Below, piece by piece: positions 29,485 to 48,100 of a stretch of DNA of 64,000 bases. Made by a program: the position numbers and the translations under genes. The notes beneath the pieces are model-generated. The model was not told where the DNA came from, ran no database searches, and saw only the letters and a program-made list of their open reading frames with translations. The DNA is from Spirochaetia bacterium. Its GTDB lineage: Bacteria; Spirochaetota; Spirochaetia; SZUA-6; Bin103. Where the stretch lies: assembly GCA_965198005.1 (NCBI GenBank), contig CBDAOI010000004.1, positions 544,001 to 608,000 on the forward strand, written 5' to 3'. How positions within the stretch are numbered: the first letter of the stretch is position 1; each line of letters opens with the position of its first letter.

Positions 29485-29486
29485 GC

Positions 29487-32435
29487 TCAGGCGCCGTCAT
29501 CCTGCCACAACCTGAACTGTTCGGGCTCATCGATCCGGTCGCGATACGCGAGGCGGTAGAGGTTGTAGAGCGCCTCCAAGTCGTTGCCGGCGGCCTCGGC
29601 ATCGCCGGGAAGGACGATCCCGGTGAAGGTCTGCGATATGGGGAGCACTTCCAGAACGGCCTCGAGCGCCGCGAAGAAACGCGGATCATGCTCCACGAGC
29701 GCCTCGCCGAGCATCTCTTGAGCGGCGGCAAGAGACTGCATGCGCGCCCGGTTGGCCGCATGGTGAATGGCGTCGATCATGCCCCGCGAACCATCGACCG
29801 GCCCCAGCGCCCCGGTGGCGGCGCGGTGCGCGCTGTCCCAGAGACGCAGGTCGCTGCCCTTCTTTTGCGCAAGACGCCCGACGATGTCGCGGTCCAAGTC
29901 GACACCGACCGCGCGCGCCAGTCTCAGCGCTTCGTCATAGGGGAAGACCGGCGCACCGAAAGCGTCCCACGCCAGCGCGAAGAACGCCGTGGCGGGATCG
30001 AGGTCCGCGTCGGCCTTGAGATGCGTCAACTGCTCCAGACGCCACCGTTTTACCTCACGCCGAGCCACGTCGAGGGCATCCTCCGGCGTCGCCGCGTAGG
30101 GATCCCACTCTTCCTCGTACGGCGTCAGTTGCGCCCGGCGGCGTTGCTTGGGTTTCTCGCGCGGTGTGCCGCGCCGCAATGGCCAGTGGCGGGAGAACTC
30201 CTCCAGCGCCGGCCCGAACGAAGCGAGGTAGAGATCGACGCGGGCAATTCCGGCGGCCTGGAACTCCTCGACCCGCTCCCGCACCGCGCGGGCGACCCGC
30301 GGCTCGACATCCTCCCAATAGCGGTCCTGTTCGGTCCTCGCGTCGTCGGTGCGCGGGCGGCACACCAGAAAGATGGTGCTGTTGGCGGCCGCCTTGTCCT
30401 TGATGTGCAGACTGCCCTCGGCCTCGGTGTTGATCGGCCAGGACGCGGTGATGACGAAGCCCGCTTCCATCAGGCCCTTGGTCAGCGCATCCCAGGCGCC
30501 GGTCGCCTTGTGGGTGAACATCAGCGTCATCACCCCGTCGGCTTTCAGCGTCCGGCGGCACTCGGCGAAGATGGACGCCATGCGCTCCTGGTAGTCCCGC
30601 CCCGCCAGCGCTCGCGCCCCCTTCTGCCCCCGGAACCGCGCCGGATTGGCCACGGCTTCGTTGTCCTTGTCGGTGAGGTGGCGGCGGAACAGCTCGGGAA
30701 AGACGTGCCCGGCGGTACGCTTGAGCCAGACGTAAAAGAAGTCCGACAGCTCGGCGTACATGACGTTGTCGTAATACGGCGGATCCATGACCACCACGTC
30801 GATGCTGCCGTCCGCGATATGGTCGAGGCTGTCGCCCGGCTTGCAGGTGATCGTGACGGGCGGCGGTGAACCCGTTTCCACGCCGGCGCCGGCGAACAGG
30901 GTGCCTGCATTGCCGTCCATCCCCGGGCGCACCAGCGCGACGAGTTCGTCAACGCACTTGATAGTCTTGTCGATGGCCCAGTCGTAGCCCACGCCCGATA
31001 CCAAAGGTGCCATCTCCGCGTAAGACCATACGAATGCGAAATCATGCCGGTCGAAGATGGACCGGACTCGACCGGTTGTATTGTCCCAGCGTCCAGCACG
31101 ATTGTTGTAGTTCAGCAAGGTATCGAGCGTGAGGGCCAGATACCCGTAAGCCGCCTCTCGAACGTGCCTCAGCTTCCCGGCTGACCGGTCGGCGTCCAGC
31201 AGTTCACGAAACACCTCGACACTCGTGCCGTGGCAGAGGAGTTGGCGAGGCGAGAACAGATCACGCCAGAACGGCATCCCGTATTGTATGGGGCGGTTGT
31301 CATTGCTCACTTCGGGGAACCGCTCGGTCGGCACGATGTCGAAGGCTTCCCACTCCGGCAGCTTCTCTGCAAGCCGCGCCTGGATCTCGGCGCCGTTGTC
31401 GTCCTCAGGCCGCGGCGCCCGATAGCGCCGCACCCACTTCTCGCGCGTGCGGCCGGTCTTGGTAGTGGTCAGCATGCGTTCCTTGTAGACCACCGTGAAG
31501 AGCTGCTCCCCCATGCGTCCGGCCTGCGCCTGCGCCTTGATCTCGTCGCCGTCGATCACCCGCCCGCAATCGGAATAGGGACAGGTCCCGTCACCACGCG
31601 CCACCGTACCCTCCGACTGCTCTCTCATCGTTTTGACGATCTCGAACGCGCAGACCCGACCTTCCGCCCCCGGACCCGACCCGAGATGAGGCTTGAGCCG
31701 TACCCCGGTCCCATCCGCCGCCAGCCGCCAGTTCGGCGACAGCGGCACCAGCCCGCCACAATACGGGCAGTTGACCGTGCGCGCCCAAAGATACGTCAGG
31801 TCGACCCCACTCGGCAGATCCCGCTGAACGAAGAAGGTGCATAGTCTGTCTTCGATTCGTCGGCGCAGTTCCGCCGCCAAGTCATTGAACTCGTCCTTGA
31901 CACTCCGGGGAAAGCTCCATGGCCACTCAATCGTAGCCCTCATTATTAGAGCCGCCACAGGGTTGAGATCGCTCGCCAAGCTAATAAACCCGAGCCGCGC
32001 CGCTTCGAACGGAATACTTCCCCCACCAGCGGTAGGATCGAGAACCGTCACACTCTCCAACCCATCGCCAAATGTCACTTTCAACCAGTCTGAATCACTC
32101 CGCGTCGGAGAGTATCCAAAGGCACGATCGTAGCCGTAGGGGTTGTCGATCCGGCCCCCATCTCGTCGCGCCTTATCCATCGCCGCGCGAGCCTCTACCG
32201 GATCCCCGTGGATTCCGAGAACGTGAAGAAATTCCTCCCGGTCGGCGTCAGCCGGCAACACCGACGCGAGTATCGCCGCCCGCGACGCCACCAACGGCCG
32301 CCGTGCCCACCACACGTGGAGATAGTAGATCGGAGGTAGAGCCGTCATGGAGCGCCGCTCGCGAATGCTCTCTTCTCCAAGAGCCGCGATCGGCAGCCAG
32401 CGCTCAATCAGACGTGTATCAGGCTTGTATCCCAT
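29487..32435 (-). CDS. DUF1156 amino-DNA methyltransferase with Zn ribbon
   Basis: LHVWWARRPL, LDPTAGGGSIP, CPYC..CPYSDC, MDPPYYDN. Confidence 0.9.
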   Translation of the reverse strand: MGYKPDTRLIERWLPIAALGEESIRERRSMTALPPIYYLHVWWARRPLVASRAAILASVLPADADREEFLHVLGIHGDPVEARAAMDKARRDGGRIDNPYGYDRAFGYSPTRSDSDWLKVTFGDGLESVTVLDPTAGGGSIPFEAARLGFISLASDLNPVAALIMRATIEWPWSFPRSVKDEFNDLAAELRRRIEDRLCTFFVQRDLPSGVDLTYLWARTVNCPYCGGLVPLSPNWRLAADGTGVRLKPHLGSGPGAEGRVCAFEIVKTMREQSEGTVARGDGTCPYSDCGRVIDGDEIKAQAQAGRMGEQLFTVVYKERMLTTTKTGRTREKWVRRYRAPRPEDDNGAEIQARLAEKLPEWEAFDIVPTERFPEVSNDNRPIQYGMPFWRDLFSPRQLLCHGTSVEVFRELLDADRSAGKLRHVREAAYGYLALTLDTLLNYNNRAGRWDNTTGRVRSIFDRHDFAFVWSYAEMAPLVSGVGYDWAIDKTIKCVDELVALVRPGMDGNAGTLFAGAGVETGSPPPVTITCKPGDSLDHIADGSIDVVVMDPPYYDNVMYAELSDFFYVWLKRTAGHVFPELFRRHLTDKDNEAVANPARFRGQKGARALAGRDYQERMASIFAECRRTLKADGVMTLMFTHKATGAWDALTKGLMEAGFVITASWPINTEAEGSLHIKDKAAANSTIFLVCRPRTDDARTEQDRYWEDVEPRVARAVRERVEEFQAAGIARVDLYLASFGPALEEFSRHWPLRRGTPREKPKQRRRAQLTPYEEEWDPYAATPEDALDVARREVKRWRLEQLTHLKADADLDPATAFFALAWDAFGAPVFPYDEALRLARAVGVDLDRDIVGRLAQKKGSDLRLWDSAHRAATGALGPVDGSRGMIDAIHHAANRARMQSLAAAQEMLGEALVEHDPRFFAALEAVLEVLPISQTFTGIVLPGDAEAAGNDLEALYNLYRLAYRDRIDEPEQFRLWQDDGA

Positions 32436-32486
32436 GTACGAAACAGAGACCCTCCAGGCTCACTCGGATGAGCGAATGTCAATTCG

Positions 32487-32738
32487 CTACGGCAATCGGT
32501 CATGGGAATCCGGCGGTTGGCCCCCATCTCGTCGAAGCAGGCGGCGCGCCGCCTCGATGTCACCCTTGGCGCTACGGGCGGCGAAGAACTCGGCAGTCTT
32601 CATGGCCGAGATCTTTTCAGCGACTGCCGTCGTAACGAACTGATTGATGCTCGTACCCTCTTCCTCGCTGATCTCGGCTACCGCCGCCTTCAAGGACGCC
32701 GGTAGGCGTAGCGGATAGGTGCTAATCTGTTTCTTCAT
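32487..32738 (-). CDS. Ribbon-helix-helix antitoxin
   Basis: YPLRLPASLK..EGTSINQFVTTAVAEK; overlaps the PIN gene stop. Confidence 0.8.
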   Translation of the reverse strand: MKKQISTYPLRLPASLKAAVAEISEEEGTSINQFVTTAVAEKISAMKTAEFFAARSAKGDIEAARRLLRRDGGQPPDSHDRLP

Positions 32739-33160
32739 TGTTGCGACATCCTCCTCAAGGCCTGCTGGGACGACAACACTGCAATCCCGAACCGTCCGGC
32801 GGCATCGTCGAAGTGCCGATGGTTGAAGGTCACCAGGGCATCGGCACTACCGTTGATGGCGGCCTCCAGCACCATTTCGTCAGCCGGATCGCGAAGCTGC
32901 GGACGCCATAGAAACCACGACCGTATCGGCTCCGCGACCGCGCAGAGCGCGGAGATCACCATCTCTACCTCCGCATCGCTGAGACCCGAGACGATCCGCT
33001 GCGACGGGTCTCGGCATACCGCCTCGTATTCCAGCGCCAGCGCCACGGAAAGCAGTAGCGTGAACTCGCGGGCCAGGGCTCCATCAATCAACGCAGCCGA
33101 GCCTCCGGTCGGACTGCGTAGACCGGCAACGACAACATTGGTGTCCAGCACAAAGCGCAC
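32735..33160 (-). CDS. PIN-domain toxin
   Basis: FVLDTNVVV, LALEYE, RDPADEMVLEAA, LVTFN. Confidence 0.9.
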   Translation of the reverse strand: MRFVLDTNVVVAGLRSPTGGSAALIDGALAREFTLLLSVALALEYEAVCRDPSQRIVSGLSDAEVEMVISALCAVAEPIRSWFLWRPQLRDPADEMVLEAAINGSADALVTFNHRHFDDAAGRFGIAVLSSQQALRRMSQQ

Positions 33161-33334
33161 ATCCTGAACGATATGACATCACATGAGATGATGCAACGGC
33201 CCCGGGGAACACCTGCGACGCCCTCGTTAGGCGCCGGACGCGGCCTTCCGCGGTGGACGCTCAGCCCCGGCCCGCATACCATGAGCCAAGATGCGCTCCG
33301 ACCCGGAGAGGCACGGGACACGGGGGTAACTGTC

Positions 33335-33430
33335 ATGGCACGGAGCGACCTCCTCGTTTCGTTGGTGAAGGCTGGATTGAATGGTGACGCGACACGCGCC
33401 CGCTCCGTCGCGGAAGCGATCATCGGTGCG
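33335..33430 (+). pseudogene. AAA ATPase N-terminal remnant
   Basis: MARSDLLVSLVKAGLNGD..AEAII resembles the start of AAA ATPases paired with S8 peptidases; the rest is absent. Confidence 0.45.
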
Positions 33431-33577
33431 AACGCTGCGGCAAACGCGGCATCGCCGGCGACGATCAGGGGGGACCGACATGCTGCTTCATAGACTATTG
33501 AATATGCGGGAGGAGCGTCCACGAGGCAGGAATCCGAATTCACCTATCGACTTCAAGGAGGACGCCACACCTTTACC

Positions 33578-33865
33578 GTGTGCCCACTTGATGGCGGACG
33601 TGATGTCAGCTTCGGAGATGAATGGTCCGTCGGAGACAACGGGCGTGCCGTTGGGCGCCAGATTCCCGCTACTCGGCTATCGGATGGGACCCTCCGCTAT
33701 CTTTGCCTGTTGGCCATTCTGTTGCATCCCGAGCCGCCATCCTTGGTCGCAATCGAGGAGCCGGAGCTGGGCCTTCATCCTGACGTGGTCGCACATGTTG
33801 CGCAGTTGCTTGTTGACGCCTCTGAGCGTACACAGATCGTAGTCACGACCCACTCGCGCATGTAG
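33578..33865 (+). pseudogene. AAA_21/ABC-type ATPase C-terminal remnant
   Basis: LSDGTLRYLCLL, IEEPELGLHP, IVVTTHS. Confidence 0.75.
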
Positions 33866-34016
33866 TCTCGGCGATCTCTGGGGCCGGGGCGAACTCGGCG
33901 GCAATCGCTGGTGAGCGCCGTGATCTAGAGGCATGCGCGCGACGGCTGGAACCAGCCGCCGGGAGCCCACGCAGACCAAGTCTCCGTCGTCATGTCAGTA
34001 GTGTCCGGTTCTAAGC

Positions 34017-34820
34017 TTAAACGGACGTGGCGCCGTCGGCACCCAGACGCCCTTCACCACCCCTGAGCCGCGGGTCGAGCAGGTCGCGCACCGCGTCGCC
34101 GAACATGTTGAGACTGTAAACGGTAATAGTCAGGACAAGACCGGGAAGGAGAGCGAGGTGTGGCGCTTGCTCCATGTATCTGCGCCCTTCCCGGCTGAGC
34201 AGACCTCCCCAGTCAGGAGTCGAGAGTGGCAGACCGAATCCGAGGAAGCTCAGAGCAGCCAAAGAGGAACATCCCCAGATTCCCCAGCGGGTCTTCGGTG
34301 AAGGGAATCAGCTTCATCGGCGGCGACCAGTTCCACCAGATTGAGGGGTAGAGCATGACCATGATTCCCAGCCAGAAGTTAGGCGTTGCCAGGCCGATGA
34401 TGGCGATGGAGCGCCCCACGTAGTCGGCGGCCGTATCCTGGCGAATCGCCGAGTAGATGCCGACGGGGAGCGCTATCACCAGCCCGATGACGATGGACAT
34501 GACACCAAGCTCAAGGGTGACTGGCAATCTACCTAATATCTTCTCCTCTACCGTCCAACCGCCAAGCAGTGTGTCGCCAAGGGTCCCGTGCAGTAAGATA
34601 CCTCCCATCCAGCGTCCATACTGCACGTGGACAGGCACGTCTAATCCCAGCATACGCTCAAGAGCTTCACGGTCAAAATTGCCAAACACCCATTGCATTT
34701 CATCCACCATCAAGTCTATTATATCGCCGGGGATGAAGCGCACCGAGAGAAAGACCAGGATGGTCAATAGAAACAGGGTGGGGATTATCAGCAATAACCG
34801 CCTGATGGTATAGGCTCTCA
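34017..34820 (-). pseudogene. Peptide ABC permeases dppB'/'dppC joined by a deletion
   Basis: DppB N-half (MRAYTIRRLL..DPLGNLGMFL) abuts the DppC C-terminus (AALSFLGFG..GDAVRDLLDPR) at about 34262. Confidence 0.85.
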
Positions 34821-34912
34821 TATCACAGACGTCCTGTCATTATTCAAGGAATGGAGAGCTAGGATGTTTCAGCTTCCCAGCTCTCCCTGAGGTCAGCCAC
34901 AAGGGCGGAGCC

Positions 34913-36375
34913 CTAATGACCCATTGCTTCCTTCATCTCACTATCAATCCAGAGGCGGGTTAAGACGTTTTGGCTCTGCTGGCCGTGTCCTATTCTTATT
35001 TCGCCGTTATAACCTTTGACCCACGGCTGCGTTGCGGTGAAATGTGGGACTTCGGGACCCCATACCACAGTTTGATGTTCTAGGAGTAACATATTTGCCT
35101 CTTTGGCGAATCTATTCTGCTCCTCGAAGGTGGAAGCAGCAGAGGCGGCCTGAAATAGAGCGTCAAATTCGGGGACGCTAAAGCCGGAGGGGGCCCACGG
35201 GCTATCTATTTCCGTTGTCCATTCTCCCATCATTGGGACAGGATAATACCTGATGGCCATTGCGTATCCTCTCAATCTGTAGGTAGTCTGATCTGGTCCG
35301 GCCGCTTGCAGTCTCATAATATCCATAGAATCTATCGCGATCTCCACGCCAATATCACGCCAGTATTCCGCGGCTATTTCTGCATAGCTCGGATCTTCCC
35401 AGTCACCTTGGGCAATCGAGGTCTTGATTCTAATGCCGTCGGCGCCGCGAGGATACCCAGCCGCATCGAGCAAAGCTTCTGCCCCTTCCGGGTCATAGTC
35501 ATAGACCTTCTTGAGCTCTTCAGGCCACTCCTCAAATGGCGTGCCCATCCCTTTTACATTATTGGCTATACGTCCATTCGGAGTCGCATCGCCATAACCC
35601 TTAAAGAAGGTATTGTTAATTGTCTCTAGGTCCAGTGCCATCTGCATGGCCTGGCGCACCCGGATGTCATTCCAGGGCGGTGTGTTCACATTGACGAAAA
35701 TAAAATTGTTGCCGCCCCGAAACTTAAACGGCCACAGATCGATTTCGGGGTTGGTCTGCTTGAGGCTCTCTACCTGGTCGATAGACGTCAATGCACTGTC
35801 ACCGACCGACCCCAGCATCTCAATCCTACCCGCGCGCAGTGCCGCCAGACGTGTTGCCTCTTCTGGCATCAACAAGGCTATTATCTCGTCAACGTAGGGC
35901 AAGCGGTTCTGCGGGTATTTTTCGTCGTAGCGCCAGTAGTCAGGATTCTTGGTCCACGTTATAGAGCTGCCTTCGACCACGTCCGTCAGCTCAAAGGGCC
36001 CGGTGCCGACTACGTTCCGCCAATCCTTAACGTCCCCGTGTTGCTCGATGACCTCCGGAGGGTATATCACAACACCGTCGGCCCACTGGAGCATATTTAC
36101 CAGGGCATTAAGGTTTAGCTCCTTCAGCTTGATAACCACCGTCCATTTGTCGGTGGCCGTGACCGACTCGAATTTCACCCCCCCGAGCGTACCCGGCCAT
36201 AGGTTATTGTCCCGCCATACTCTGGCGCGGTCACGATCTTGCCGGTGGCCGGGTCGCGCACCATTTCCTTTTCGGGCGCCGCTGCCGGCTCCTCTTCGCT
36301 GGCAGCGCCGGCCCAGAGGCCGGTTGCGGTCAGGGCCAAGCCAATCAGTACGGCGAGGCACTTGCGAAATTTCAT
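34913..36375 (-). pseudogene. Peptide ABC substrate-binding protein, internal deletion plus frameshift
   Basis: The N-terminus ..TAPEYGGTITYG jumps at about 36190 to GVKFESVTAT, losing roughly 120 aa relative to the paralog at 40890-42710. Confidence 0.85.
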
Positions 36376-37543
36376 ATAAACCATAAATTCCTTTGCGCGA
36401 GAGTAGGATCTACTGCCGGCCCCTCGCCTACTCTCGCGATATGCCTGCAATCCGCAGGTGATCAGAAAGCGAGGGCGACACCCTTTAGCGGCCGACGCCG
36501 CTCGGTCCCGAGCCGCGTTAGTCGTACGGAGATTTCATCCCTTGCCTCCTTTGACATGGGCATGCCGCAGAACACCACGCGGGGTGGCGGTCGGACACGT
36601 AACCCATCTGTTTCTTACCGCCGGCAGCGTCGCTACGCATGTTGGGATGGACTGGTATCATCTTCACCTCCTTCTTGGGGCACAGGGTGCCCTGCCAGAT
36701 GGCTGACGTAAGATGGGATCCGCGTACGCGCCGCATCATGCAAACGCCCACCGCTCGGCGGACGTCGGGACCTGCGTCACAACGCCACGCGCGGCGGTGG
36801 CCGGCGAAGCAGCGAGGGTGATTGACCGGCGACGCAGGCGGTGGGTTTTGCGCGCAGTTAGTCGCGGGCGGGGATCCGGCACGGTCGCGGTCGCCGACAA
36901 CGGCGTGGGCGGCCCGCATGCCGGTTCGGCTGTGGACGGAGCCGGTGCCACCGATAGCTACGGCGGTAGTGGAGGCGACGGCGTGCGCGGGGGCGCGTGC
37001 GCGGCGATCAGCCGGAGCGGTTAGTTGTTTCTCGGTTCGAAAAAGTGGGGGGGTAGGCGAGGATAGGACGCGCCGGCTGCGTTGCCGCTAACCGGTGGCA
37101 GTGCTGAGTAGTGTTATCACGCATCTTTTGCATCCGTTCAAACCCGAGGCTTTTAGTATGGCACCGCTGCGGCAAACAAGTCAACAGGCAAACAGCAGCG
37201 ATTCTCGGGGAACCGCTGGTAGAGGGGCAGAGGGTCATAAGCTCAAGCCCTCCGAGTGTGAAACGCGACCATGCCCACCTGTTGGCCCACCGAGTGAATG
37301 CACGCACGGCCCGACCCGGCATAAATTCTGTAACTGATGGCAGGTGACGTATTTAGCCACCGTCATGCAGCCCCGTGCGATGACCTGACCACCGTCAGCC
37401 ACCGCCGCTCGGCCGATGCCGCGGGCTGGCGCGGTGCGGCGATCGGCCCTTCGGGGCCGGTTGCCCGCGCGCCGCCGGCACACCTGCGCCGCAGCCCCAG
37501 TCAGGGATCGTTCAGGGAGCAGGTTCAGTTCCCCAGGGAGCGG

Positions 37544-37803
37544 CTACCCGGACAGCGGCTGCGGCGGCGAATTCATCCGCACCAGCACCTGGTCCCACGA
37601 CCGGAACAGGAATAGCCGGAACGTGGCGCGAATCGCGCCCCAGAACTCCCGGCGCGACCCGAACCCAGCCCGCACCTGCTGATACAGACCGTCCACCAGC
37701 TCGAATATCCGGTGCATGAAACAGGCCAGCAGGCCCGGCACGAAGAACGCCTCCGATAAGTACTTGTCACCGTGGCCGAAGTTGTGCTCCAGGTGATAGC
37801 CCC
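37544..37803 (-). mobile_element. ISNCY-like transposase C-terminal remnant
   Basis: GYHLEHNFGHGDKYLSEAFFV..LLACFMHRIFELVDGLYQQVR..EFW. Confidence 0.7.
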
Positions 37804-37828
37804 TGACGGCCTTCCAAACCCAGGGAGG

Positions 37829-38946
37829 GCGCGGTAGGAACGCCGGTTACCCGGCGCCCCCCGCACAGATCCGGACGTGGTCGTTAAACCATCCGGCTCC
37901 TACCTTCGGTGGTTGACGGCAAATCGCCGGTCCGGCCATGAGTGTACGATTCGGGGTTGGGGCCACAGCTTGATGCTGATCGCCAGCATCCAAGCCCAGG
38001 AGAATCGGTCCTTCTGGGACCTCCGGCGTAGAATCTTTACCCAGATTCCTCGCAGACGCCACACGAATCGGTGCAGGTAGCGGTAGCTGGTGGGTACCGC
38101 GTAGTAGTTGAGCCATCCGCGCAGTACCCGTCCCAGCCAGCGCCCGGTTTCCATCACGTCATCATGCATTCGTCTGCGGAGTTCGATCTTGATCCTCTTC
38201 AGGGTACGATTCATCCGCTTTTCATGTCTCCGCGCGCCTCCTGCGGCCGCCACTTCTTGGTGACCCACAGGTCCAACACGTAGTGCAGATAGATATTCGC
38301 GAGCATCGGTGAAATCACCGACCCTTGCGCTGTACCCCGCCCCGCGTCGATCTGTCGGCCTTCTTCCAGTACCCCAGCGCGCAGCCACTTCTTTATCAGC
38401 CGCAGCACCCGCCGATCTCCAATCCGATGCTCCAGGAATCTGATCAACCAGTCCCGCGAGATCGTGTCGAAGTAGCCGCGAATGTCCGCGTCCAATATCC
38501 AGTTCACTTCGCGCCGTTCGATGGCGTAGGCCAGTGCGTCCAACGCATCGTGTGCCCCTCGCCCCGGTCGAAACCCATAGCTGATCCCGAGAAATTCCTC
38601 CTCATAGATCGGAGTCAGGATCACATCCACCACGGCCTTCCGGACGATCTTGTCCTCCAGCGCGGCCACCCCCAGCGGTCGTGTGCCTCCGTCCGGCTTG
38701 TCGATGTCGACCCGCCGTACCGGGGCCGCTTCGCGCTTCAGCGCGTAATAGGCCACCGCAGCGCTTCCGGCGTCACGTGGTGCAGCAGCGCAGTGAGTTT
38801 CTCCTGCGGTTCTCTCTTTACGAATTGCCGTATCCGCACCCTTGCAGGTGCCAACGCACGGCTCGCGGGGAAACGTGGATTGGCTGCTCCTTCGTTCCGA
38901 GGGACTTTCACCCTCTGTCATATGCCAGTTTGCCTGGCGCTCGCAC
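37829..38946 (-). mobile_element. Group II intron, internally deleted (class E-like)
   Basis: 5' GTGCGAGCGCCAGGCAAACTGGC; domain V GAGCCGGATGGTTTAACGACCACGTCCGGATC (about 37868-37899); domain VI ending CCTACCGCG. RT motifs KPDGGTRPLG, YGFRPGR, DADIRGYFD, GTAQGSVISP and domain X are present; the YADD region is deleted. Confidence 0.9.
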
Positions 38947-39823
38947 CCAGGCGGCCCCCACCACCCCGCAGCCGCGGGTCGAGCAGGTCCCGCACCGCGT
39001 CGCCGAACATGTTCAGGCAGTACACGACAATCGTCAGGCACAGCCCGGGTAAGAGCGCCAGCCGCGGCGCCACCTCCATGTACTTGCGCCCTTCTCTGCT
39101 GAGCATGGCTCCCCAGCTCGGGATCTCCAGTGGCAGACCGAATCCCAGGAAACTCAAGCTGGCCTCGGCAATGATGACGCCCCCGATGTTGATGGAGAAG
39201 ACGATGATGACGACAGGTATGATATTGGGCAGCACATGGCGGATCAGGATGTGGCGCGTGGGCGTGCCCACCGCCTGGGCTGCCAGCAAATAGTCATTCT
39301 CCTTGATGCCCATAACGGCACCCCGGATGACTCTCGAGCCGCCGATGCCCCCGGCGATCCCCAAGACCAGGATGATCTGTGGCAAACCCTGCCCCACCAC
39401 AGACATGATCGTCAACAAGATCAGCAACCCCGGAAAGGCCATCCAGGCATCGACAAAGCGCTGCACCGCCAGGTCCAGTTTCCCGCCAAAGTAGCCGGAC
39501 GGTGCGCCTATCAGCACAGCCACCACGACATTGACCGTAGTCGCTGCCAGGCCGACGAATAGCGAAATTCGGGCACCGTAGATCAGGCGGCTCAGCAGGT
39601 CCCGCCCCAGATGATCGGTGCCCAGGAGATAGCGGCTCGATGAGCTGGTCAGCCGGTCTACCAAATGGACTTCAGCCGGCTCATACGGCGCCACGACACC
39701 GGCGAAAATGCTGACGAAAACCAGTAACAGTACGACCACTCCCCCGAAAGTGCCCAGCGGCTGCTCCTTCACAAGCCTTCGCAGCAACAGGCCCGGGAAA
39801 AACTGTCTCTTTCTCGGGTCCAT
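38918..39823 (-). CDS. Peptide ABC transporter permease (DppC/OppC-like)
   Basis: LGTDHLGRD, RHVLPN, EASLSFLG, GDAVRDLLDPR; the last codons come from the intron 5' end. Confidence 0.9.
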   Translation of the reverse strand: MDPRKRQFFPGLLLRRLVKEQPLGTFGGVVVLLLVFVSIFAGVVAPYEPAEVHLVDRLTSSSSRYLLGTDHLGRDLLSRLIYGARISLFVGLAATTVNVVVAVLIGAPSGYFGGKLDLAVQRFVDAWMAFPGLLILLTIMSVVGQGLPQIILVLGIAGGIGGSRVIRGAVMGIKENDYLLAAQAVGTPTRHILIRHVLPNIIPVVIIVFSINIGGVIIAEASLSFLGFGLPLEIPSWGAMLSREGRKYMEVAPRLALLPGLCLTIVVYCLNMFGDAVRDLLDPRLRGGGGRLGASARQTGI

Positions 39824-39824
39824 G

Positions 39825-40787
39825 CTATCGATAACGAATCCGGGGATCCAAATAGGAATAAATGATATCGATCAACAGGTTGAACGTGAGCACGGCAGTG
39901 CCAAAAAACAGGTTGATGCCGGAGACTACCGGGTAATCTCTCTCCGTGAGGGCGATCAGCATCAGGCGTCCTAGCCCCGGAAGGTTGAAGATGTTCTCCA
40001 TGATTACGGCGCCGCCTACTATGATAGGTAGCTGCAGGCCTACCAGGGTCACTACCGGAATGAGGGCGTTCTTGACGGCGTGCCTCACCACGACGACACG
40101 CTCCTTGAGACCCTTGGACCAGGCGGTACGGATATAGTCCTGCCGGAGCACTTCCAGCATCATGGTGCGGGTCATACGCATGGTGGCAGCAGACAAGGCC
40201 GTCCCCAGTATCAGGCTGGGAATGATGAAGATGCCGAGATTTCCCAGCGGGTCTTCGACCAGAGGGATATACTCCATCGGCGGCGACCAGCCCCACCAGA
40301 TGGCCGGAAAGATCATCACCATCAGGGCCAGCCAGAAGTTGGGCGTTGCCAAGCCGATGACGGCGAACGAACGCCCCACGTAGTCGGCGGCGGTGTTGCG
40401 GCGCATCGCCGAGTAGATGCCGACCGGCACTGCTATCAGCAACCCCATGACGACGGACAAAACGCCAAGCTCAATAGTCAGCGATAATCTGTCCCAAATA
40501 GCCGCCTCCACCGACCAGTCGCCTAAAAGTGAATTGCCAAGGGTGCCGCGCAGCAGGATACCTCCCATCCAGCGTCCATACTGCACGTACACGGGCTGGT
40601 CCAATCCCAACATCCGCTCGACAGCTTCACGGTCCATACTCGCACCCGCGCCTTGAGCTTCTATCCTACCCGCCATCGCATCTATTACATCACCCGGGAT
40701 GAAACGGACCGACAGGAAGACCAGGATGGTCAAAATCAACAGCGTAGGTATGAGGAGCAATAGTCTCCTGATGACGTAGGCTCTCAT
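39825..40787 (-). CDS. Peptide ABC transporter permease (DppB/OppB-like)
   Basis: FIPGD, LGLDQP..QY, DYIRTAWSKG, HAVKNA, PGLG, LDPRIR. Confidence 0.9.
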   Translation of the reverse strand: MRAYVIRRLLLLIPTLLILTILVFLSVRFIPGDVIDAMAGRIEAQGAGASMDREAVERMLGLDQPVYVQYGRWMGGILLRGTLGNSLLGDWSVEAAIWDRLSLTIELGVLSVVMGLLIAVPVGIYSAMRRNTAADYVGRSFAVIGLATPNFWLALMVMIFPAIWWGWSPPMEYIPLVEDPLGNLGIFIIPSLILGTALSAATMRMTRTMMLEVLRQDYIRTAWSKGLKERVVVVRHAVKNALIPVVTLVGLQLPIIVGGAVIMENIFNLPGLGRLMLIALTERDYPVVSGINLFFGTAVLTFNLLIDIIYSYLDPRIRYR

Positions 40788-40833
40788 TTCGGATGACTGC
40801 TCATCGTTCGACTGGACGCCACAGCTTGTTCGG

Positions 40834-40871
40834 AAAAAAAGTCCCTCTCCCCGCGGGGCGGTGAGAGGGAC
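40834..40871 (-). terminator. Terminator-like hairpin between the SBP and permease genes
   Basis: Stem GTCCCTCTC/GAGAGGGAC followed by T7 on the minus strand. Confidence 0.7.
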
Positions 40872-40889
40872 CAACGCGCTAGATCGTGC

Positions 40890-42710
40890 TCAAAAACCCA
40901 TTTCTTTCTTCAAATCCTGGTCAATCCAGAGGCGGGCGAAAATGGCATACCATTGCAAACCCCCTAGGCCACCTTCCGAGTTGTACCCTTTGACCCACGG
41001 CTGGGTGACATTAAATTGTGGAACCTCAGGACCGGGAACACCCCAGACACTCTTCTTGAAGTACATATCCATCTCCAGAATCGGCTCCCTCTGATCCTCA
41101 AAGGTGGTAGCGGCCTTGGCTCTCTCGAACAACGCGTTAAAGACCGGGTCGTCGGATTTAGCTGGGTTATATTGAAATGCCGGAGTAAATCTCAACATCG
41201 CATCGTATGAATCAGACAACGCACCGAACGCGTAGTGGACTAACCCCTGTTCCCTTTCAGGATCTGCCCACCATGCGTTCCATGCTGCATCAGCTGGCCG
41301 AGGATCGAGCCTCACATCGACGCCAATCTCACTCCAGTAGGCTGCGACCGCTTCTACCCAGCCAACATCCTCGGTGTCACGGAATTTTGCGTTGGTCTTG
41401 AATCGAATGCCGTCGGCGCCGCGCGGATAGCCCGCTTCATCAAGCAGCTTCTCGGCCCCCTCAGGGTTATAGCTATAGGCATCCTTGACCTCCTGAGGCC
41501 ACTCGTCAAACGGGACGTGGAAACCTGGCATCCCTATTTGCCCCCTGGGCGTTGTATCTCCATAACCCTTGAAGTAGGTATTGTTAATGGTTTCGTGGTC
41601 CAGTGCCATGTTCATGGCCTTTCGCACCCGGATGTCGTCAAAGGGCGGCTCACTCACGTTGAAAATAAAACCATTATCCGCCCGTTCCGAATACTCGTTC
41701 AGCACCAGCTCGGGATTGGTTCTCTTGAGACTCTCTGCCACATCGATAGATTTTATCATGGTGCCGGCGCCGTGGTAACCACTGTAATCAATTTTACGGG
41801 AGCGTAGTGCCGCCAGACGGGTTGCTTCCTCCGGCATGAACAGGACCCTGAACTCGTCGACGTACGGCAGGCGGTTCTCCGGGAACTTCTCGTCGTAGCC
41901 CCAGTAGTCAGGATTCTTGGTATAGGTGATAGAGACGCTTTCGACATAGTCAGTCAGCTCAAAGGGTCCGGTGCCGACCAGGTTCCTCCAATCGGAAGCG
42001 TCACCGTCTTCCTTGATTACCTCGGGAGGATACATGACGATAGTATGCCAGTCCAGAATCATGTTCGGGGTACGAAGGTATGGCTCCTTCAGCGTGAAAA
42101 CTACGGTATATTCGTCGGTGGCCGTTATCGACTCGAATGGCACTGTCCCAAGCTCACCTGCTGTTGCGGCAGGTTCGGCTTCACTGAACTCGGTCCCTGT
42201 CAACCTATTTCCCAAGAAGCGGTGAAAGGAATGTTCTACATCCTTGGCAGTTAGCTCCCGCCCGTTCACCGGCGGCTTATCATGCCAGTGAACGCCCTGG
42301 CGGATGTTGAAGGTATAGGTGAGCCTGTCCGGGGACATATCCCAGCTTTCAGCCAGCGCCCCCTTCAGGGCGAATAGAGGCGCCGGGTAGCCACCCCTAA
42401 AGTGAAATTCGTCCCTACTTAGTCCCCAGTCCACGATGCCGAGCTTCTCCACGACGGCACTGCTAACTTGAAACGGCGACCACGCTAAATAAGTGTCAAA
42501 AACCTTCTGATCTCTTCCAGCGGCCTGGGTCAATGTCCCGCCATACTCTGGCGCGGTCACCATCTTGCCGGTGGTGGGGTCGAGCACCATTTCCTTCTCG
42601 GCAGCGGCTACCGGCGCCTCTTCCTCTGCGCCGGCGGCCCAGAGGCCGGTTGCGGTCATTACGAGGACCAACGCAAACGCGAAGGTCATTCTGATTCTTA
42701 CAATATGCAT
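40890..42710 (-). CDS. Peptide ABC substrate-binding protein (family 5)
   Basis: 606 aa; signal peptide, LAESWD, IRQGVHWHD, GTGPF, PFDDIRVRKA. Confidence 0.9.
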   Translation of the reverse strand: MHIVRIRMTFAFALVLVMTATGLWAAGAEEEAPVAAAEKEMVLDPTTGKMVTAPEYGGTLTQAAGRDQKVFDTYLAWSPFQVSSAVVEKLGIVDWGLSRDEFHFRGGYPAPLFALKGALAESWDMSPDRLTYTFNIRQGVHWHDKPPVNGRELTAKDVEHSFHRFLGNRLTGTEFSEAEPAATAGELGTVPFESITATDEYTVVFTLKEPYLRTPNMILDWHTIVMYPPEVIKEDGDASDWRNLVGTGPFELTDYVESVSITYTKNPDYWGYDEKFPENRLPYVDEFRVLFMPEEATRLAALRSRKIDYSGYHGAGTMIKSIDVAESLKRTNPELVLNEYSERADNGFIFNVSEPPFDDIRVRKAMNMALDHETINNTYFKGYGDTTPRGQIGMPGFHVPFDEWPQEVKDAYSYNPEGAEKLLDEAGYPRGADGIRFKTNAKFRDTEDVGWVEAVAAYWSEIGVDVRLDPRPADAAWNAWWADPEREQGLVHYAFGALSDSYDAMLRFTPAFQYNPAKSDDPVFNALFERAKAATTFEDQREPILEMDMYFKKSVWGVPGPEVPQFNVTQPWVKGYNSEGGLGGLQWYAIFARLWIDQDLKKEMGF

Positions 42711-42921
42711 ACGTTTCTCCGTATGTAGATTTTTCGAGAGTATTGCGGAGCGGATTGCCGCTCCCTGGCTACTCTTATGCCCGCAACCGCGGGCGTGCCC
42801 GCAACCGCGGACGGCCAGTCTGAGTCAAATTCCTGAAGCGCGCGGCGTGTGACTCAGCCGGGTTCACCCGGGCTCACGCCGCGCGCGCCTACGGCTCTTT
42901 GAGTATCATTTTGAACCTCCT

Positions 42922-43597
42922 GTGCGCCGGCAAACCGGCAGGGTTGTTGTGAATGAAAGAGTCATACGTCGAATGGCTAGCGACCCACGGCGGCCCCGAG
43001 TCATGCGCCGTCGCCCGCGAGGGCGGGGGCGAAGCGTTGACAGGGGTACGTGCGGGCCGGGTATCGAGCCGCGAAAGGCAATTACTTCGGGGTGCCGACG
43101 CCGTAGGAGGATGCGGAAGGCCGACAAGACGCGCTTGATCGAGTTTGGGCCGTTCGCGGCCGAGAACCGCAGGCGCCGAGGTGAGGGCAAGCCGGAGACC
43201 TTCGACTTCCTCGGGTTCACGCACATCTGCGGGACCAAGGGGAGTAACGGACGGTTCACGGTGCTCAGGCAGACGATGCGGGAGCGGTTGCAGGCCAAGC
43301 TGGGGCAGGTGAAGATCGAGCTCCGGCGACGCCTGCACGATCCGGTCCCGGAGGTGGGAAGCTGGCTGCGCTCGGTGGTGGGTGGGCACCTGCGTTACTA
43401 CGGGGTGCCCATGAACTCCCGCGCAATCAGCCTGTTCCGCCTGCGGGTTGGTTGGCTCTGGAATCGGTCGATGCGGCGACGCAGTCAGAAGACCCGGCTT
43501 ACCTGGGAGCGCATGAGCCGTCTCATCGACCACTGGTTGCCACCGCCCCGTGTGTGCCATCCCTATCCCCTGTACCGCCTTGGCGTCATACCTGAGG
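42922..43597 (+). mobile_element. Group II intron remnant (5' domain I joined to RT6-7 and X; no domain V/VI)
   Basis: Starts GTGCGCCGGCAAACCGGC, with GAAGCGTTGACAGGGG..GAGCCGCGAAA; jumps at about 43120 to KTRLIEFG..PETFDFLGFTH..GHLRYYGVP..HPYP. Confidence 0.85.
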
Positions 43598-43598
43598 C

Positions 43599-43927
43599 GT
43601 CGTGGCGCATCATCCTCATCCATCCAACCCCGAGCGGTGAACCGTCGCACGCGGCCAGAACCTGTCAACGACTCGGAGGTCACCGAAGGTCACCGTCGAC
43701 CGGCCACTGCGCTGACTGTCATCATGGTGCTGCATCATCGATCCGTCGAACCCCAAGCGAGGCAAGCTTGCTATGGACGCGACCACCCTGTCAACGACTC
43801 GGAGGTGACCGACGGCCACCGTCGACCGGCCACTGCGCTCACTGTCGTCATGGCGCTTCATCATCGATCCGTCGAACCCAGAACGGTGCAGTCTCTCACG
43901 CGCACGGCAAACTCTCAACAGCTCGGA
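43599..43927. repeat. Degenerate tandem repeat with ~123-126-bp period
   Basis: 93-bp core at 43661-43753 and 43787-43879 (7 mismatches); partial copies at about 43599-43630 and 43911-43927; 30-33-nt variable linkers. Confidence 0.85.
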
Positions 43928-44631
43928 TCCCATCGTCCCATCTATCCCGTCCCACTGTCCAGTTGGCTCGAGGCCGAGCGACGCTGACTAAGAACGTCAG
44001 TCGGCGACTGGTGTTGGCGTCACGGGCCGTCTCCAATCAACCGAGACAAAACCGAGACACGGTCGGTCGCGAACAAGGGGCCTTGGTGCATACTCTGAAT
44101 CGGGCAATGGGCGGGTTTGCCGGCAACCCGGAATCGCCATCGAGGCGTGGCGCGGTGAGCCGGCAGCGACAATGGGCTGGATCGCCACCGACACGCGATG
44201 GGCCGCTTCATCGGTCGCGGCAGAGTTGGTAACCGGTGACCTCCACCCGCGGTTTCCCTCCCTGGCACCGTACTGCGCGGGTTGCCACGCACTCCTATAT
44301 AGATTGTTGGCGCCGCCGCGTGCGCCGGGAAGGGGCCAAGCGCCAGCGGACCGTGCGCGAGAAGACCTCAGCGCGTTCAAGTCGCCACCACCCAAATATG
44401 CCCGTATCTTCTTGATATATAATTAGTTACAATCTCCTGCAGGCCGCTAAACCGGACAGTAGTGTCGTCATGTATCAAATGACTCGATGACTCTGCGCGC
44501 CCATGCCTTGCCTTCCCCGCAGGTCCGTCTTGGTCACCTTGGGAGGGTCGCGGAACACGATCCGGGAGACCCACTTCTCCGATTCTACCGCGGAGGTTGC
44601 CGGGAACGCCGCATGCGGCTCTATGCGCATT

Positions 44632-45123
44632 TCATGCGCCGCCGGAGCGGGGAGCATCGGTCAGGAGGATGCGCAGGGCCGTCAGCACGCGGCGCGGACG
44701 CTTGCGGTGGATCGTCATTCCCGCCCAATACGCGGCTTCCTCATGCTGCATGGTCTCGATGCCCTCGACTACCGCTCGCATATTAACGCGGTTGCGCATC
44801 GGAGCAAGGGTGCGGAACAGCAACCCCAGCATGAGGGCGACCTCTTCGGTAAGGGTGTAGCCGCTGTTCACGTCGCTGGCGCTCGGACCAAGCCTCACCC
44901 CGGATTGCGCAAGCCGGCGCAGCACGCGGTGCTCGATGAGGTCCAGATTGGGGCCGCGGAGCCGCGCGATGCGGTGCGCGGACGTCACGGAGGGCGTCGC
45001 TGCCGCGGGCATCTGCCAGATCGCGTATTCCGTGTCCGCCGGCCCATGACGGCGCACGCGCAGCTCATACCGGGGAGCCGATTCCGGCGTCTCGATCCGG
45101 GTGATTCGCGCCGGATGCGCCAT
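44632..45123 (-). CDS. Small DUF499-associated protein (occupies the DUF3780 position)
   Basis: TAATG-coupled to the DUF499 gene; C-terminal EEAAYW..ALRILL. Confidence 0.7.
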   Translation of the reverse strand: MAHPARITRIETPESAPRYELRVRRHGPADTEYAIWQMPAAATPSVTSAHRIARLRGPNLDLIEHRVLRRLAQSGVRLGPSASDVNSGYTLTEEVALMLGLLFRTLAPMRNRVNMRAVVEGIETMQHEEAAYWAGMTIHRKRPRRVLTALRILLTDAPRSGGA

Positions 45124-48100
45124 TACGCGGCCGCCTCCGCGGTGGCCGACACGTAGGCCGCCCCGCTCGCGAACCGTGCCAGGCGCTCGGTAAGCTTCTC
45201 CGCGGCGTCGCCCTCCATCGACAGACCATCCTCGAACGTCAGTGCGAACCCAACCGTCAGGTTCTGCGAGTTGGCGTCCCGAAGTTGCGGATCGAGAAAC
45301 TCCTTCACCGGTTGCGCATCCGCCACCGGGCCCGTGAACTCCAGCTCGAACGAGCCGCCCTCGCGGGTTTCATAGCCTCCCGTGATCGTAACGACTTTCG
45401 TCGCTCCGGACACCGCGCCGATGGCGCCGAGCAGCCGAAAGGCGTCGCCCGCCTCGAACATGCGGATCGATAGCACTCCGATCTTGTCCATGCGCTGCGC
45501 CCGCGCCTGCTCCCAGAGTCGCACCAGAGCGTCCCTGAGCACTCCCTCGGCGGTGACCGAGCCGGACGCCGGACGCGGCGGTGGATGCCCGCCTGTATCC
45601 TTGGACGGTAGCCCCGGCAACTCGCGAATGACAGACTGCTTGCGCCCACCGCCCTGAGCGCCCGGTGCAGGGCGCGGCCAGATGCCCTTGTTCCTGGCGT
45701 AGGCCATGGTCAGGACCACGGCCTGCTCGTCGATCATGATGCTCACCGCCGGGTCGTCCGGGCCGCACAGCAACTCACCCCGCCGGTAGATGTAGTCGCC
45801 CTGCTCGACCCCGCGCCGGATGCCCCGAATGAAGATCTCGTCCCCGCTCAGGATGGGCAGCGCCGGATCGCGGCGGAATTCCTCGCGTAGCGCGAGGGTG
45901 GTCATCTGGCCCTTCTTGAGCGGCGTGCGGTCGCGTACGTAGGCCGGCGAATCCGGCTCGTCCTCGGCCAGCCGCAGTTTCCTGAGATCGCGCAATGCCC
46001 GCACCACTTGTTGTTGGCCGGCGCCGGGCTGATCCGACGCGGCGTGCAAGTCGATCGCCGAGTGGGCCAGATCGACGCCGCTCGGTTCCACCCGGTTGCG
46101 CGAAGGATAGAAGATGTGCCGGTAGCATTGCTGGATGGCGATGGCCAGCACATGTTCGGAACGTGACTCCAGCTCGCGGATGTTCGCCTGCTGATGCTCG
46201 GCCAAGTCCGCCATTCGCTCGGCCTGTTGCAACGCGCGCAGGGCAAGCCGCCGCACCGCGGCGCGCCGCATCTCCTCCTTGCGCGCGTCGTCCGCCACCA
46301 CGAACACCAGATTGTTGCGTAGCGCCCGCAATGCCGCTCCCTCTGTCCCCCGGCGTGCATAGATGCGCTCGACCAACTCGGGGACGCTCTCGACGGCCGT
46401 TCCGATCACCACGCCGTCGTAGGCGAGCACGATCAGCCTGGGGCGGCCGTCGCCGACCTCGTCCGGCACGTCGAACGGTCCGCCGGGAAAGGGGATCGCC
46501 TCGAAGGTCGTTCCCGCGAATATCCGGCGGATACGGTCGTTGAGTTCCGCACGCGCGTCGCCCGCGTCCACGTGCTGCTCTTCGCGGCGAATGATCTGGC
46601 TCAGATTCGCTTCGGCGAGGAACCGCATCGGAGCGCCCGGCCGGTCGTCGAGATAGGCCGAGTCGGTGATGAACCGCTTGCGCGCCTGTTCGATGAAGCT
46701 GATGTCGGTCGCCGGCCCCAGAACCGAATAGCGCAGCCGTTCGGCCGACAGCCCCTTCAGCGGATCGTTGAAGGCAAGGGTGTGCATGAAGATCGTGCGC
46801 GCCACGTAGGCGGCGTAGGGCGGCATGCCGCCGTGCTGGGCGGCGTCGATCTCCTGCGCCAGCGCCTTGCCCTCCAACCGGCCGGCGGCGACGTCGTTGG
46901 TGATCGCCGGCACGTAGGCGGTCTGGCCGAGACGGGTAACGATCTCCTGACGAATCGGTTCGTGGCCCGGGTCGACGTGGTGGAGATGGATCGCCGTCGC
47001 GTCTGCCGGCTGCTCCTGCCAGAGGTGGGAGATCGTACGTGCCAGCAGCCGCAGCATGCCCCGCACCCGCTGGAAATTGCCGAGCGTCGCGGTCTTGCCG
47101 GTGAGGGTTGCCAGCACCTCCGGATGCAACGGATAGCTCGCACGGAAGGTCTCCGCGGTCTGCGGGTGCGCGGCGTCCCGAGCCAGCGCGTCTCCATGCG
47201 TAGTCCACAGCTCCTGGTAGGCGTCGACCACCGCGGGAAGCGAAGCGCGGTCGATGGTCTCGAACAGGCGCCGGAGCAGTACCTGGACCGTCTCGTCCTC
47301 TTCGGTGGGGTTGAGCAGCGTGGCCTTGCGCGCGGACACGCTCTCCGCCTCCGCCATCCGGTCGCCGATGAACTGGTTCTCCTCGCTGTAGGCATCGGTG
47401 GCGCGGCCATCCTTGCCAATCGCCAGGGTGTAGACCAGTGCCGCGTGCGGCGCGCCTTCCACCGCCTTGAACAACGAGGTCAGGAACGCGGTCAACTGAT
47501 CGCGGGCGGCGTCGAGGCGCTGCACCTTGCGCAGGTAGACCGACAGCTCGTCGAGCAGGATCAGGGTCGGCTGGCCGCCGAACAGCTCGCGCAGGGTTTC
47601 GGCCCCGGGGGCGACGCCTTGCTCGTCGCTGTTGCGAACCCGTTGGTAGCCGACCTTGCCGGCGAGCGCGTAGGCGATCTCGCCCCACGGCGTGTGCGCC
47701 AGAACACCGTCGCCCATCGCCCGGCCGTTGGCGGGATCGGCGTTCTCCCCGTCGAACCCGGCGACCCGCACCGGACCCGCCGGCAGCAAGCTCGGATCGA
47801 CGAACTCCGCGATGTCGAACTCGTCCGGCAAACCACGCACGGCATGGACCAGGGCGATCAGTGCATGGGTCTTGCCGCCGCCATACGAGGTATCGAGCCT
47901 GAAGATCGCCGCCGCCTCGCCACCGGCGCCACTCAAGCGCCGGCATACGTTGGACAACAGACTCCTGATGCCGCGCGTCGGCCAGGTGCGGGCGAAAAAC
48001 CGGGCCGGGTCGCGGTACTCCGCGCTGGCGCGGCCGGCGATGACCTGGGCGAGGTCGGCCGCGAAATCAGCTTCGGCTACGCTCCCCGTCAGGACATCCC

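Follow-up and report, generated by a model that had tools for sequence, protein, structure and literature searches.

A 10.47-kb element with IS4Sa-type ends and no transposase gene in an Hma defence cluster of a Spirochaetia bacterium: a probable large mobile insertion cassette

Can the short ends of an insertion sequence (IS) enclose and carry a large block of ordinary chromosomal genes when the element holds no transposase gene of its own? This question is raised by a locus in a Spirochaetia bacterium, where 64,000 nucleotides of DNA (GenBank assembly GCA_965198005.1, contig CBDAOI010000004.1, positions 544,001 to 608,000) were analysed as one stretch, called here the window; positions without a contig name refer to it. 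Positions 33996-44464 of the window, lying within a helicase-methylase-ATPase (Hma) defence cluster, are best explained as a non-autonomous derivative of an IS of the IS4 family, subgroup IS4Sa, with a 20-bp right-end arm, a 163-bp left-end arm and no transposase gene. It is close to certain that these ends are genuine and that the insertion was transpositional. The reading favoured here, to which a probability of roughly 60% is assigned, has the entire cassette move as a single unit with the help of a transposase supplied in trans.

The limits of the element are given by four features that lie directly against one another in pairs:

33987-33995, no strand: left target-site duplication, TCGTCATGT, present as a single copy in the empty site of genome G019
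33996-34015, plus strand: left arm, a 20-bp IS remnant of the right-end (IRR) type, with the terminal inverted repeat at 33996-34010 (alignment)
44302-44464, minus strand: right arm, 163 bp of the IS left-end (IRL) type, with the terminal inverted repeat at 44450-44464 (alignment)
44465-44473, no strand: right target-site duplication, TCGTCATGT (sequence inspection)

The two 9-bp copies of TCGTCATGT, at 33987-33995 and 44465-44473, are exact, and each adjoins a 15-bp inverted end. Directly after the left copy stands the left terminal inverted repeat, CAGTAGTGTCCGGTT, and the right one, AACCGGACAGTAGTG (reverse complement CACTACTGTCCGGTT), leads straight into the right copy; the two ends agree at 13/15 positions. 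A preliminary description of the window, made from its letters alone, had pointed out these ends and repeats, and they lie exactly where it had placed them and stand above chance. A degenerate form of the end motif, with at most two mismatches allowed, matches only these two sites in the window (0.15 expected), a number reached by 2/100 shuffled sequences. Moreover, the target 9-mer occurs three times in the window against 0.46 expected, which none of 100 shuffles attained; its third copy, at 42032, is unrelated to the element. Equally accurate was the remark that the left end comes within 6 nt of the stop of a cargo gene, as the left terminal inverted repeat is followed by CTAAGC and then by the stop codon of a minus-strand permease remnant (open reading frame, ORF, 34017-34262).

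The proof of insertion comes from an empty site, which the preliminary description had proposed to seek in related genomes. Each flank was searched in 41 genomes, namely the window's own genome (G000; four contigs, 90% complete, including the contigs C2, C3 and C4 cited below) and 40 relatives. G019 alone has both flanks adjacent, contiguous through a single TCGTCATG(C). In the direct alignment the site runs ...CAAGTCTCCG-TCGTCATGC-ATCAAATGACTCG..., so that one target copy joins the flanks; the ninth base of this target is unlike that of the window. The flanks themselves are 92-98% identical between the two genomes, the left one at 96% over its last 131 bp and the right one at 95% and then 92%. 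Since one target copy joins the same flanks in G019, the 10,469 bp between the two repeats of the window are an insertion with a 9-bp duplication. A duplication of 8 bp with one extra matching base is the less likely alternative. It is thereby established that a transposase of the IS family to which these ends belong joined both termini to a 9-bp staggered cut at this point. Additionally, the right junction is bridged without mismatch by Logan contigs from 2/4 public runs, which belong to different studies (X15, 44338-44575; X16, 44058-44523). None of the 15 listed read joints, the best supported of 294, skips the whole element, and none of the 32 listed pieces, beside which 29,575 more exist, bridges the left junction.

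The IS family behind these ends is found intact in relatives. The 15-mer end of the element is present in 4/41 genomes and in 8/92 genomes of the order, G000 being counted in both. In G009, which belongs to the same genus, it bounds three IS of 1366-1394 bp and two miniature inverted-repeat transposable elements (MITEs) of 378 bp, and G012 contains 12 ends of the parent IS, with four examined copies of 1394 bp each. Exact 9-bp duplications surround all nine copies examined (three IS and two MITEs in G009, four IS in G012). The long copies encode a 413-aa protein with the Pfam domains DUF4372 and DDE_Tnp_1, which scores 259.9 bits on the NCBIfam model for IS4 family transposases (NF033592; cut-off 115). 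A YREK motif, Y-x2-R-x3-E-x6-K, can be read by eye in its translation (YKSRWKVELFFKWVK). The nearest named relatives, obtained by tblastn in a plasmid collection, are ISPosp4 (64%) and ISGme2 (53%), both of which stand under 'Subgroup IS4Sa' in the consulted part of the supplement of De Palmenaer et al. (2008; PMC2266710). For this subgroup, Table 1 of the same paper, also consulted as an extract, gives ends of the form CA------T, duplications of 8-10 bp and sizes of 1150-1750 bp.

The element agrees with this description in its ends, CA(G/C)TA(G/C)TGT..., with T at position 9 and a variable position 3, and in its 9-bp duplication, which is shared by 9/9 related copies. The transposase is encoded by the autonomous copies of the relatives and is absent from the window element itself, and the grouping with ISPosp4 and ISGme2 is one of best named tblastn matches, not of a tree. 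Judged from these sequence features, the parent IS is a member of the IS4 family, subgroup IS4Sa. The preliminary description had named the IS231/IS4 family, of which the IS4 part holds. IS231 was considered as the parent and rejected, since its ends are CAT and its duplications 10-12 bp long according to the extract of PMC2266710 and the nearest relatives lie elsewhere. The suggested search for the same ends and for an autonomous IS sharing them was successful among the relatives, where both IS and MITEs were recovered, and not in G000 itself.

Two further observations concern this IS family. Its terminal 8-mer is a near-palindrome in which positions 3 and 6 co-vary (CAGTAGTG, CACTACTG), and in G012 it is the perfect palindrome CAGTACTG. 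In the window element (33996-34003 and 44457-44464) and in both G009 MITEs, the two terminal 8-mers are identical on one strand; those of the full G009 IS copies are true inverted copies. Furthermore, G022 contains solo ends of the parent IS, at L041 position 7851 and L042 position 8691, which lie beside truncated transposase remnants and have no partner end within about 8 kb; on L041 the end and the remnant are about 1.9 kb apart.

The two arms differ greatly in length. The left arm shares 19/20 positions with the same end of a G009 MITE and 17/20 with the right end of the G009 IS; at 34016, homology to an ATP-binding cassette (ABC) transporter locus on C2 begins, and that C2 locus has no IS end at the equivalent place. 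The right arm matches a truncated IS of G022 at 129/163 positions and the G009 IS at 112/158. It represents the end upstream of the transposase gene and breaks off just before the gene start would fall. The claim that the element lacks a transposase was upheld: no transposase domain was found by Pfam in nine interior ORFs scanned (ORFs 36518-36919, 42889-43683 and 43997-44395 lay outside the scan), and a tblastn search of G000 with the G009 transposase gave nothing at E <= 1e-3 and noise alone at E <= 10. Other IS4-family transposases (NF033592) do exist in G000; they are too distant for tblastn, and none lies near an end-like motif. Two end-like matches on C3 (65271 and 68403) point away from each other, one of them inside a 970-aa ORF, and were dismissed as chance. 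Nearby, C3:64163-65285 holds a frameshifted ORF pair that resembles an IS630-type transposase by eye and ends at CACTAGTGTCCCGTG; the loose resemblance of the latter to the element ends is likewise taken as chance.

Between the arms lie about 10.3 kb of cargo, a mosaic of native DNA. Its layout is that of two tandem peptide ABC clusters, A and B, both of which have intron debris and their usual upstream flanks beside them:

34017-34262, minus strand: DppC-like permease remnant of cluster A, last ~80 aa (Pfam BPD_transp_1; 92.5% to the end of the 306-aa C2 gene)
34213-34821, minus strand: DppB-like permease of cluster A, N-terminal remnant (Pfam BPD_transp_1_N; 186 aa at 97.8% to the 318-aa C2 gene)
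34913-36361, minus strand: solute-binding protein remnant of cluster A (Pfam SBP_bac_5; two blocks to the 628-aa C2 gene, with an internal deletion of about 0.34 kb)
36655-37802, no strand: multi-copy intergenic repeats that elsewhere lie upstream of solute-binding protein genes (93-99% matches on C2, C3 and C4)
37800-38950, minus strand: multi-copy group II intron fragments with reverse-transcriptase and maturase remnants (Pfam, repeat matches)
38918-39823, minus strand: DppC-like permease of cluster B, intact, 301 aa (Pfam OppC_N and BPD_transp_1; 96.7-99.3% to G001, G005 and G006)
39825-40874, minus strand: DppB-like permease of cluster B, intact (Pfam BPD_transp_1_N and BPD_transp_1; 95.4-95.7% to orthologues)
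40890-42710, minus strand: family-5 solute-binding protein of cluster B, intact, 606 aa (Pfam SBP_bac_5; 91.9-94.4% over the full length to orthologues)
42958-43168, plus strand: group II intron RNA D1-D4, part of a decayed intron (Rfam RF02005, 124.6 bits, E = 1.3e-35)
43169-44301, no strand: repeat-rich filler with no recognised gene (83-96% multi-copy repeat matches within 43123-43900)

Cluster A (34016-36656) is 96-99% identical to C2:166331-170389, relative to which it has lost about 1.08 kb, at the DppC-like remnant, and about 0.34 kb. The C2 counterparts are intact (a solute-binding protein of 628 aa and permeases of 318 and 306 aa), and cluster A retains remnants only. At the DNA level, cluster B (38918-42710) matches one locus each in the congeneric genomes G001, G005 and G006 at 97% identity, and one in G003 at 92%, with proteins 92-99% identical to their orthologues; no other copy of it above about 75% identity was found in the G000 assembly. 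The intron debris between the clusters includes an RVT_1 domain in ORF 38211-39041 and a weak GIIM match in ORF 37900-38388 (Pfam), and ORF 42922-44232 matched no Pfam family. Elsewhere in G000, 17 places match 38222-38730 and 19 match 38720-38837; the intron copies are 97.5-99.2% identical among those listed, for instance C4:1028340-1029058 and C4:168012-169965. The window's own intron copy (37800-38950) is broken up by internal deletions. As no ABC ATPase domain was found by Pfam in the interior ORFs scanned, the transporter would need ATPases encoded elsewhere.

The cargo is also set apart by its composition. The guanine-cytosine (GC) content of the element interior is 59.2%, that of the flanks 65.8-67.9% and that of the genome 65.8%; the two ABC clusters have 55.9% and 57.1%, and their chromosomal paralogue on C2 has 55.0%. 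Owing to the equally low value of the paralogue, the low GC content belongs to these clusters as a family and does not mark the DNA as foreign. A foreign source of the cargo was rejected on the same ground and because of its 96-99% matches within the genus, and from its sequence the cargo looks like ordinary chromosomal DNA of the lineage. The preliminary description had spoken of two lower-GC peptide ABC clusters. The lower GC content stands; the picture of two whole clusters does not, one of them being a pseudogene remnant, and group II intron debris has to be added to the inventory.

Several observations on the distribution of such clusters deserve mention. The 96-97% DNA homology of cluster B (38911-42658) with G001, G005 and G006 ends almost exactly at the boundaries of the three genes, and the 8 kb around it differ between G001 and G005/G006, as for a cassette-like operon in shifting contexts. 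A donor scar was sought, and with the cluster B contexts differing among G001, G005 and G006 the native locus could not be defined. The G001 neighbour of cluster B corresponds to C4:1741-4327 of G000, near the start of that contig, and C4:1-1740 has no match in that G001 region; the contig break at the C4 start could hide the native locus of cluster B. In general, G000 is rich in paralogous peptide ABC clusters of the order solute-binding protein, permease, permease, with single cargo segments matching at least many tens of places at 72-90%, and these clusters often lie beside conserved upstream flanks and group II intron copies.

How might such a block have come to lie between two IS ends? 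On the favoured reading, the cargo would already have been there at the time of transposition. The event itself was a DDE cut-and-paste transposition, in which a transposase bound both termini and set them together into a 9-bp staggered cut between genes of the Hma cluster, and from this cut the duplication of TCGTCATGT arose. The transposase would have been supplied in trans by an autonomous copy, now gone from the assembly, and the whole cassette would have moved as a unit, the 20-bp arm being sufficient as one of its ends. The outcome would be a very large mobile insertion cassette (MIC) that is now stranded. Movement as a unit is favoured by the cargo reading as one contiguous piece of typical lineage chromosome, by cluster B having no copy in the assembly outside the element, by a left junction devoid of any repeat able to guide later recombination, and by the solo IS ends of the relative G022, which are the raw material of such cassettes.

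A number of results weigh against this reading. G000 has no other exact element end, its matches with one or two mismatches being at chance level, and no cognate IS, in an assembly that is itself only 90% complete. As exact patterns, a 23-mer across the left junction had no match in genome contigs, and a 25-mer of the right end had none in metagenome or genome contigs. With up to three mismatches in 92 genomes, the left junction gave outside G000 a single three-mismatch match, in G091, which is taken as chance. A second site occupied by the element, as is usually asked for in proof of mobility, was accordingly not seen; this point lies outside the MIC definition in the consulted part of PMC6199540. 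The window element is the only pair of ends more than 1.4 kb apart in the 92 genomes, and cargo carriage is therefore not demonstrated as a habit of the parent IS. That an arm of 20 bp is enough for this transposase is something we infer. Finally, the building of the cassette needs two illegitimate junctions, which may have formed either before or after transposition.

The last point opens the way to the chief competing account, in which a plain IS or MITE was inserted with its 9-bp duplication and its interior was later replaced and expanded in situ, through intron insertions and through recombination, illegitimate as well as homologous, with the many paralogous ABC loci; the cargo would then never have travelled between the ends. 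This account is possible, and clearly the less probable of the two. It draws on the mosaic nature of the interior, whose pieces are found again across the genome, and on IS decay being known from G022, where solo ends and truncated transposase remnants occur, one of them about 1.9 kb away. It also gains from the missing cognate transposase in G000 and from the failure to find a second cassette copy in genome contigs, metagenome contigs or the 92 genomes. However, it demands that 10.3 kb of distant chromosomal DNA were pasted into a 1.4-kb IS with the termini and the duplication left untouched. At the left junction, 20 bp of IS stand straight against a stop codon with no recombination-anchor repeat. 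Moreover, cluster B, having no second copy in the assembly, fits relocation better than copying, and the cargo has the look of a single uninterrupted stretch of typical chromosome.

The IS4 family is well known for compound transposons, and the ABC region may also be imagined to have been moved by two full IS in the manner of Tn5 or Tn10, with both transposase genes and the inner ends deleted afterwards. As regards the insertion event, this would be a sub-case of the best explanation. One arm is of the left-end and the other of the right-end type, which is what two IS in direct orientation would leave as their outer ends. Against this stand the two more independent deletions needed, each of which would have had to spare just the outer terminus, and the lack of any trace of a transposase or of inner ends; where an IS copy would be expected at each end, there are arms of 20 and 163 bp. 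Such a decayed compound transposon is considered improbable. Far less credible still is that the structure is a coincidence of repeats or a chimeric contig. The two shuffles in 100 that yielded two end-like matches are all that speaks for it, whereas the ends adjoin the repeats exactly, G019 has a clean empty site, the same ends bound 9/9 examined elements with 9-bp duplications in relatives, and independent runs bridge the right junction at 100% identity. The element is no MITE either, as these are non-coding and a few hundred bp long; it has 10,469 bp and intact genes, and the true MITEs of this family have 378 bp.

With the reading of a cassette moved as a unit in mind, known systems offer several comparisons. 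In the consulted part of PMC6199540, an MIC is described as two IS inverted repeats without a transposase but with at least one coding sequence, and reported sizes are about 0.7-3 kb. The window element has two IS inverted repeats as its bounds, no transposase gene inside, three intact ABC-transporter genes and three remnants as passengers, and a parent-type target duplication around it with a known empty site. In its structure it conforms to the published description of an MIC, though at 10.47 kb, against roughly 0.7-3 kb, it would be an unusually large one. The closest parallel is MIC231 of the Bacillus cereus group, which was mobilised in trans by the IS231 transposase (Chen et al. 1999; De Palmenaer et al. 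2004, as related in the same part of PMC6199540). Both possess IS inverted repeats, passenger coding sequences, an IS4-family parent and a parent-type target duplication, and both lack a transposase. The movement of MIC231 in trans was demonstrated, whereas that of the window element we infer from sequence. The parents also differ, IS4Sa with CA.. ends and a 9-bp duplication in the window against IS231 with CAT ends and 10-12 bp for MIC231. Unlike MIC231, the window element is single-copy, has one arm of only 20 bp and carries a piece of native chromosome, pseudogenes and remains of introns included. As of 2008, according to the consulted part of PMC2266710, no other IS4 subgroup had been seen to share this modular habit, and a search of open-access full text by exact words returned no report of IS4Sa passengers or cassettes beyond that paper.

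Other relatives resemble the element in part. The autonomous IS of G009 and G012 and the 378-bp MITEs share its identical 15-bp termini and 9-bp duplication and have arms 69-95% alike. The IS, however, encode a 413-aa transposase within 1366-1394 bp and the MITEs carry nothing, whereas in the window element unrelated genes fill 10.3 kb and a transposase is lacking. Tn5 and Tn10 similarly belong to the IS4 family, make a 9-bp duplication and hold cargo between IS ends; they have a complete IS at each end, whereas no IS body is left in the window element. The Tn3 family transposes replicatively and makes 5-bp duplications, unlike the family of this element. The Tn3-derived inverted-repeat miniature elements (TIMEs), as presented in the consulted part of PMC4133298, are nevertheless alike in that short transposase-less ends mobilise the DNA between them with a transposase acting in trans. 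In TIME mosaics, according to the same part of that source, whole miniature elements stand at both ends, in contrast to the bare arms of 20 and 163 bp found here.

The locus provides a well-documented natural case, with its empty site, parent IS, sister MITEs and traced cargo origin. Here a 10-kb block of housekeeping-type genes lies between short IS ends, and an annotation based on genes would not mark it as mobile. If the block moved as a unit, the known size range of MICs would grow several-fold, the MIC habit would extend to a second IS4 subgroup, and a route would be at hand for the relocation of nutrient-uptake operons within a genome. The landing in a horizontally shared defence island would perhaps also help to spread such operons between genomes. 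A wider proposal concerns these genomes, which are rich in repeats and apparently sponge-associated: bare IS4Sa ends would serve in them as a general vehicle for relocating whole chromosomal operons, and transposition of 10-kb segments in trans, from an arm of 20 bp, would help to shuffle and multiply the very large family of peptide ABC clusters. This is doubtful; if true, it would make the element the first IS4-family cargo cassette outside the IS231 subgroup, with at least three times the reported capacity.

The site of insertion is surrounded by the genes of the Hma cluster, whose left-flank block spans 26326-33865:

26326-29484, minus strand: HmaA helicase, SNF2/PLD (Pfam, PADLOC)
29487-32435, minus strand: HmaB methylase, DUF1156 (Pfam, PADLOC)
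32735-33160, minus strand: PIN toxin (Pfam)
33381-33865, plus strand: decayed AAA_21 ATPase fragments (Pfam, PADLOC), intact with 440 aa in G019
44632-48140, minus strand: right flank with the DUF7680 protein (44632-45123) and the HmaC ATPase, DUF499 (45123-48140) (Pfam; PADLOC HmaC E = 3e-98)

The Hma genes are intact in the window, and the element lies at an intergenic point. In G019 the target is found between convergent genes, 68 bp past the stop of the plus-strand 440-aa AAA_21 ATPase gene and overlapping the TGA stop of a minus-strand ORF of 116 aa. The preliminary description had placed the insertion inside a defence operon. An Hma cluster it is, yet the junction is intergenic, and neither a position within a gene nor a demonstrably single operon was borne out, the cluster being already split at this site in G019 by the oppositely oriented ATPase gene. 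As the ATPase is intact in G019 and fragmented in the window, the element occupies a variable slot at which the defence cluster was interrupted beforehand. Such a slot, between the DUF7680 and methylase genes, tolerates large insertions.

Some minor observations relate to the cluster itself. The AAA_21 or HEC-01A-like ATPase (33381-33865) has been cut down by several deletions, and the counterpart of the 116-aa ORF of G019 is also shortened in the window. The Hma cluster (26326-33986 and 44474-48140) is 92-98% identical to G019:C1:739026-744806, and G019 belongs to another genus of the same family; this suggests a recent horizontal transfer of the Hma island between the lineages of G000 and G019. 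Additionally, a second locus of G000, C2:676226-676956, is 80% identical to the DUF7680/HmaC flank, and the Hma system may be present twice in this genome.

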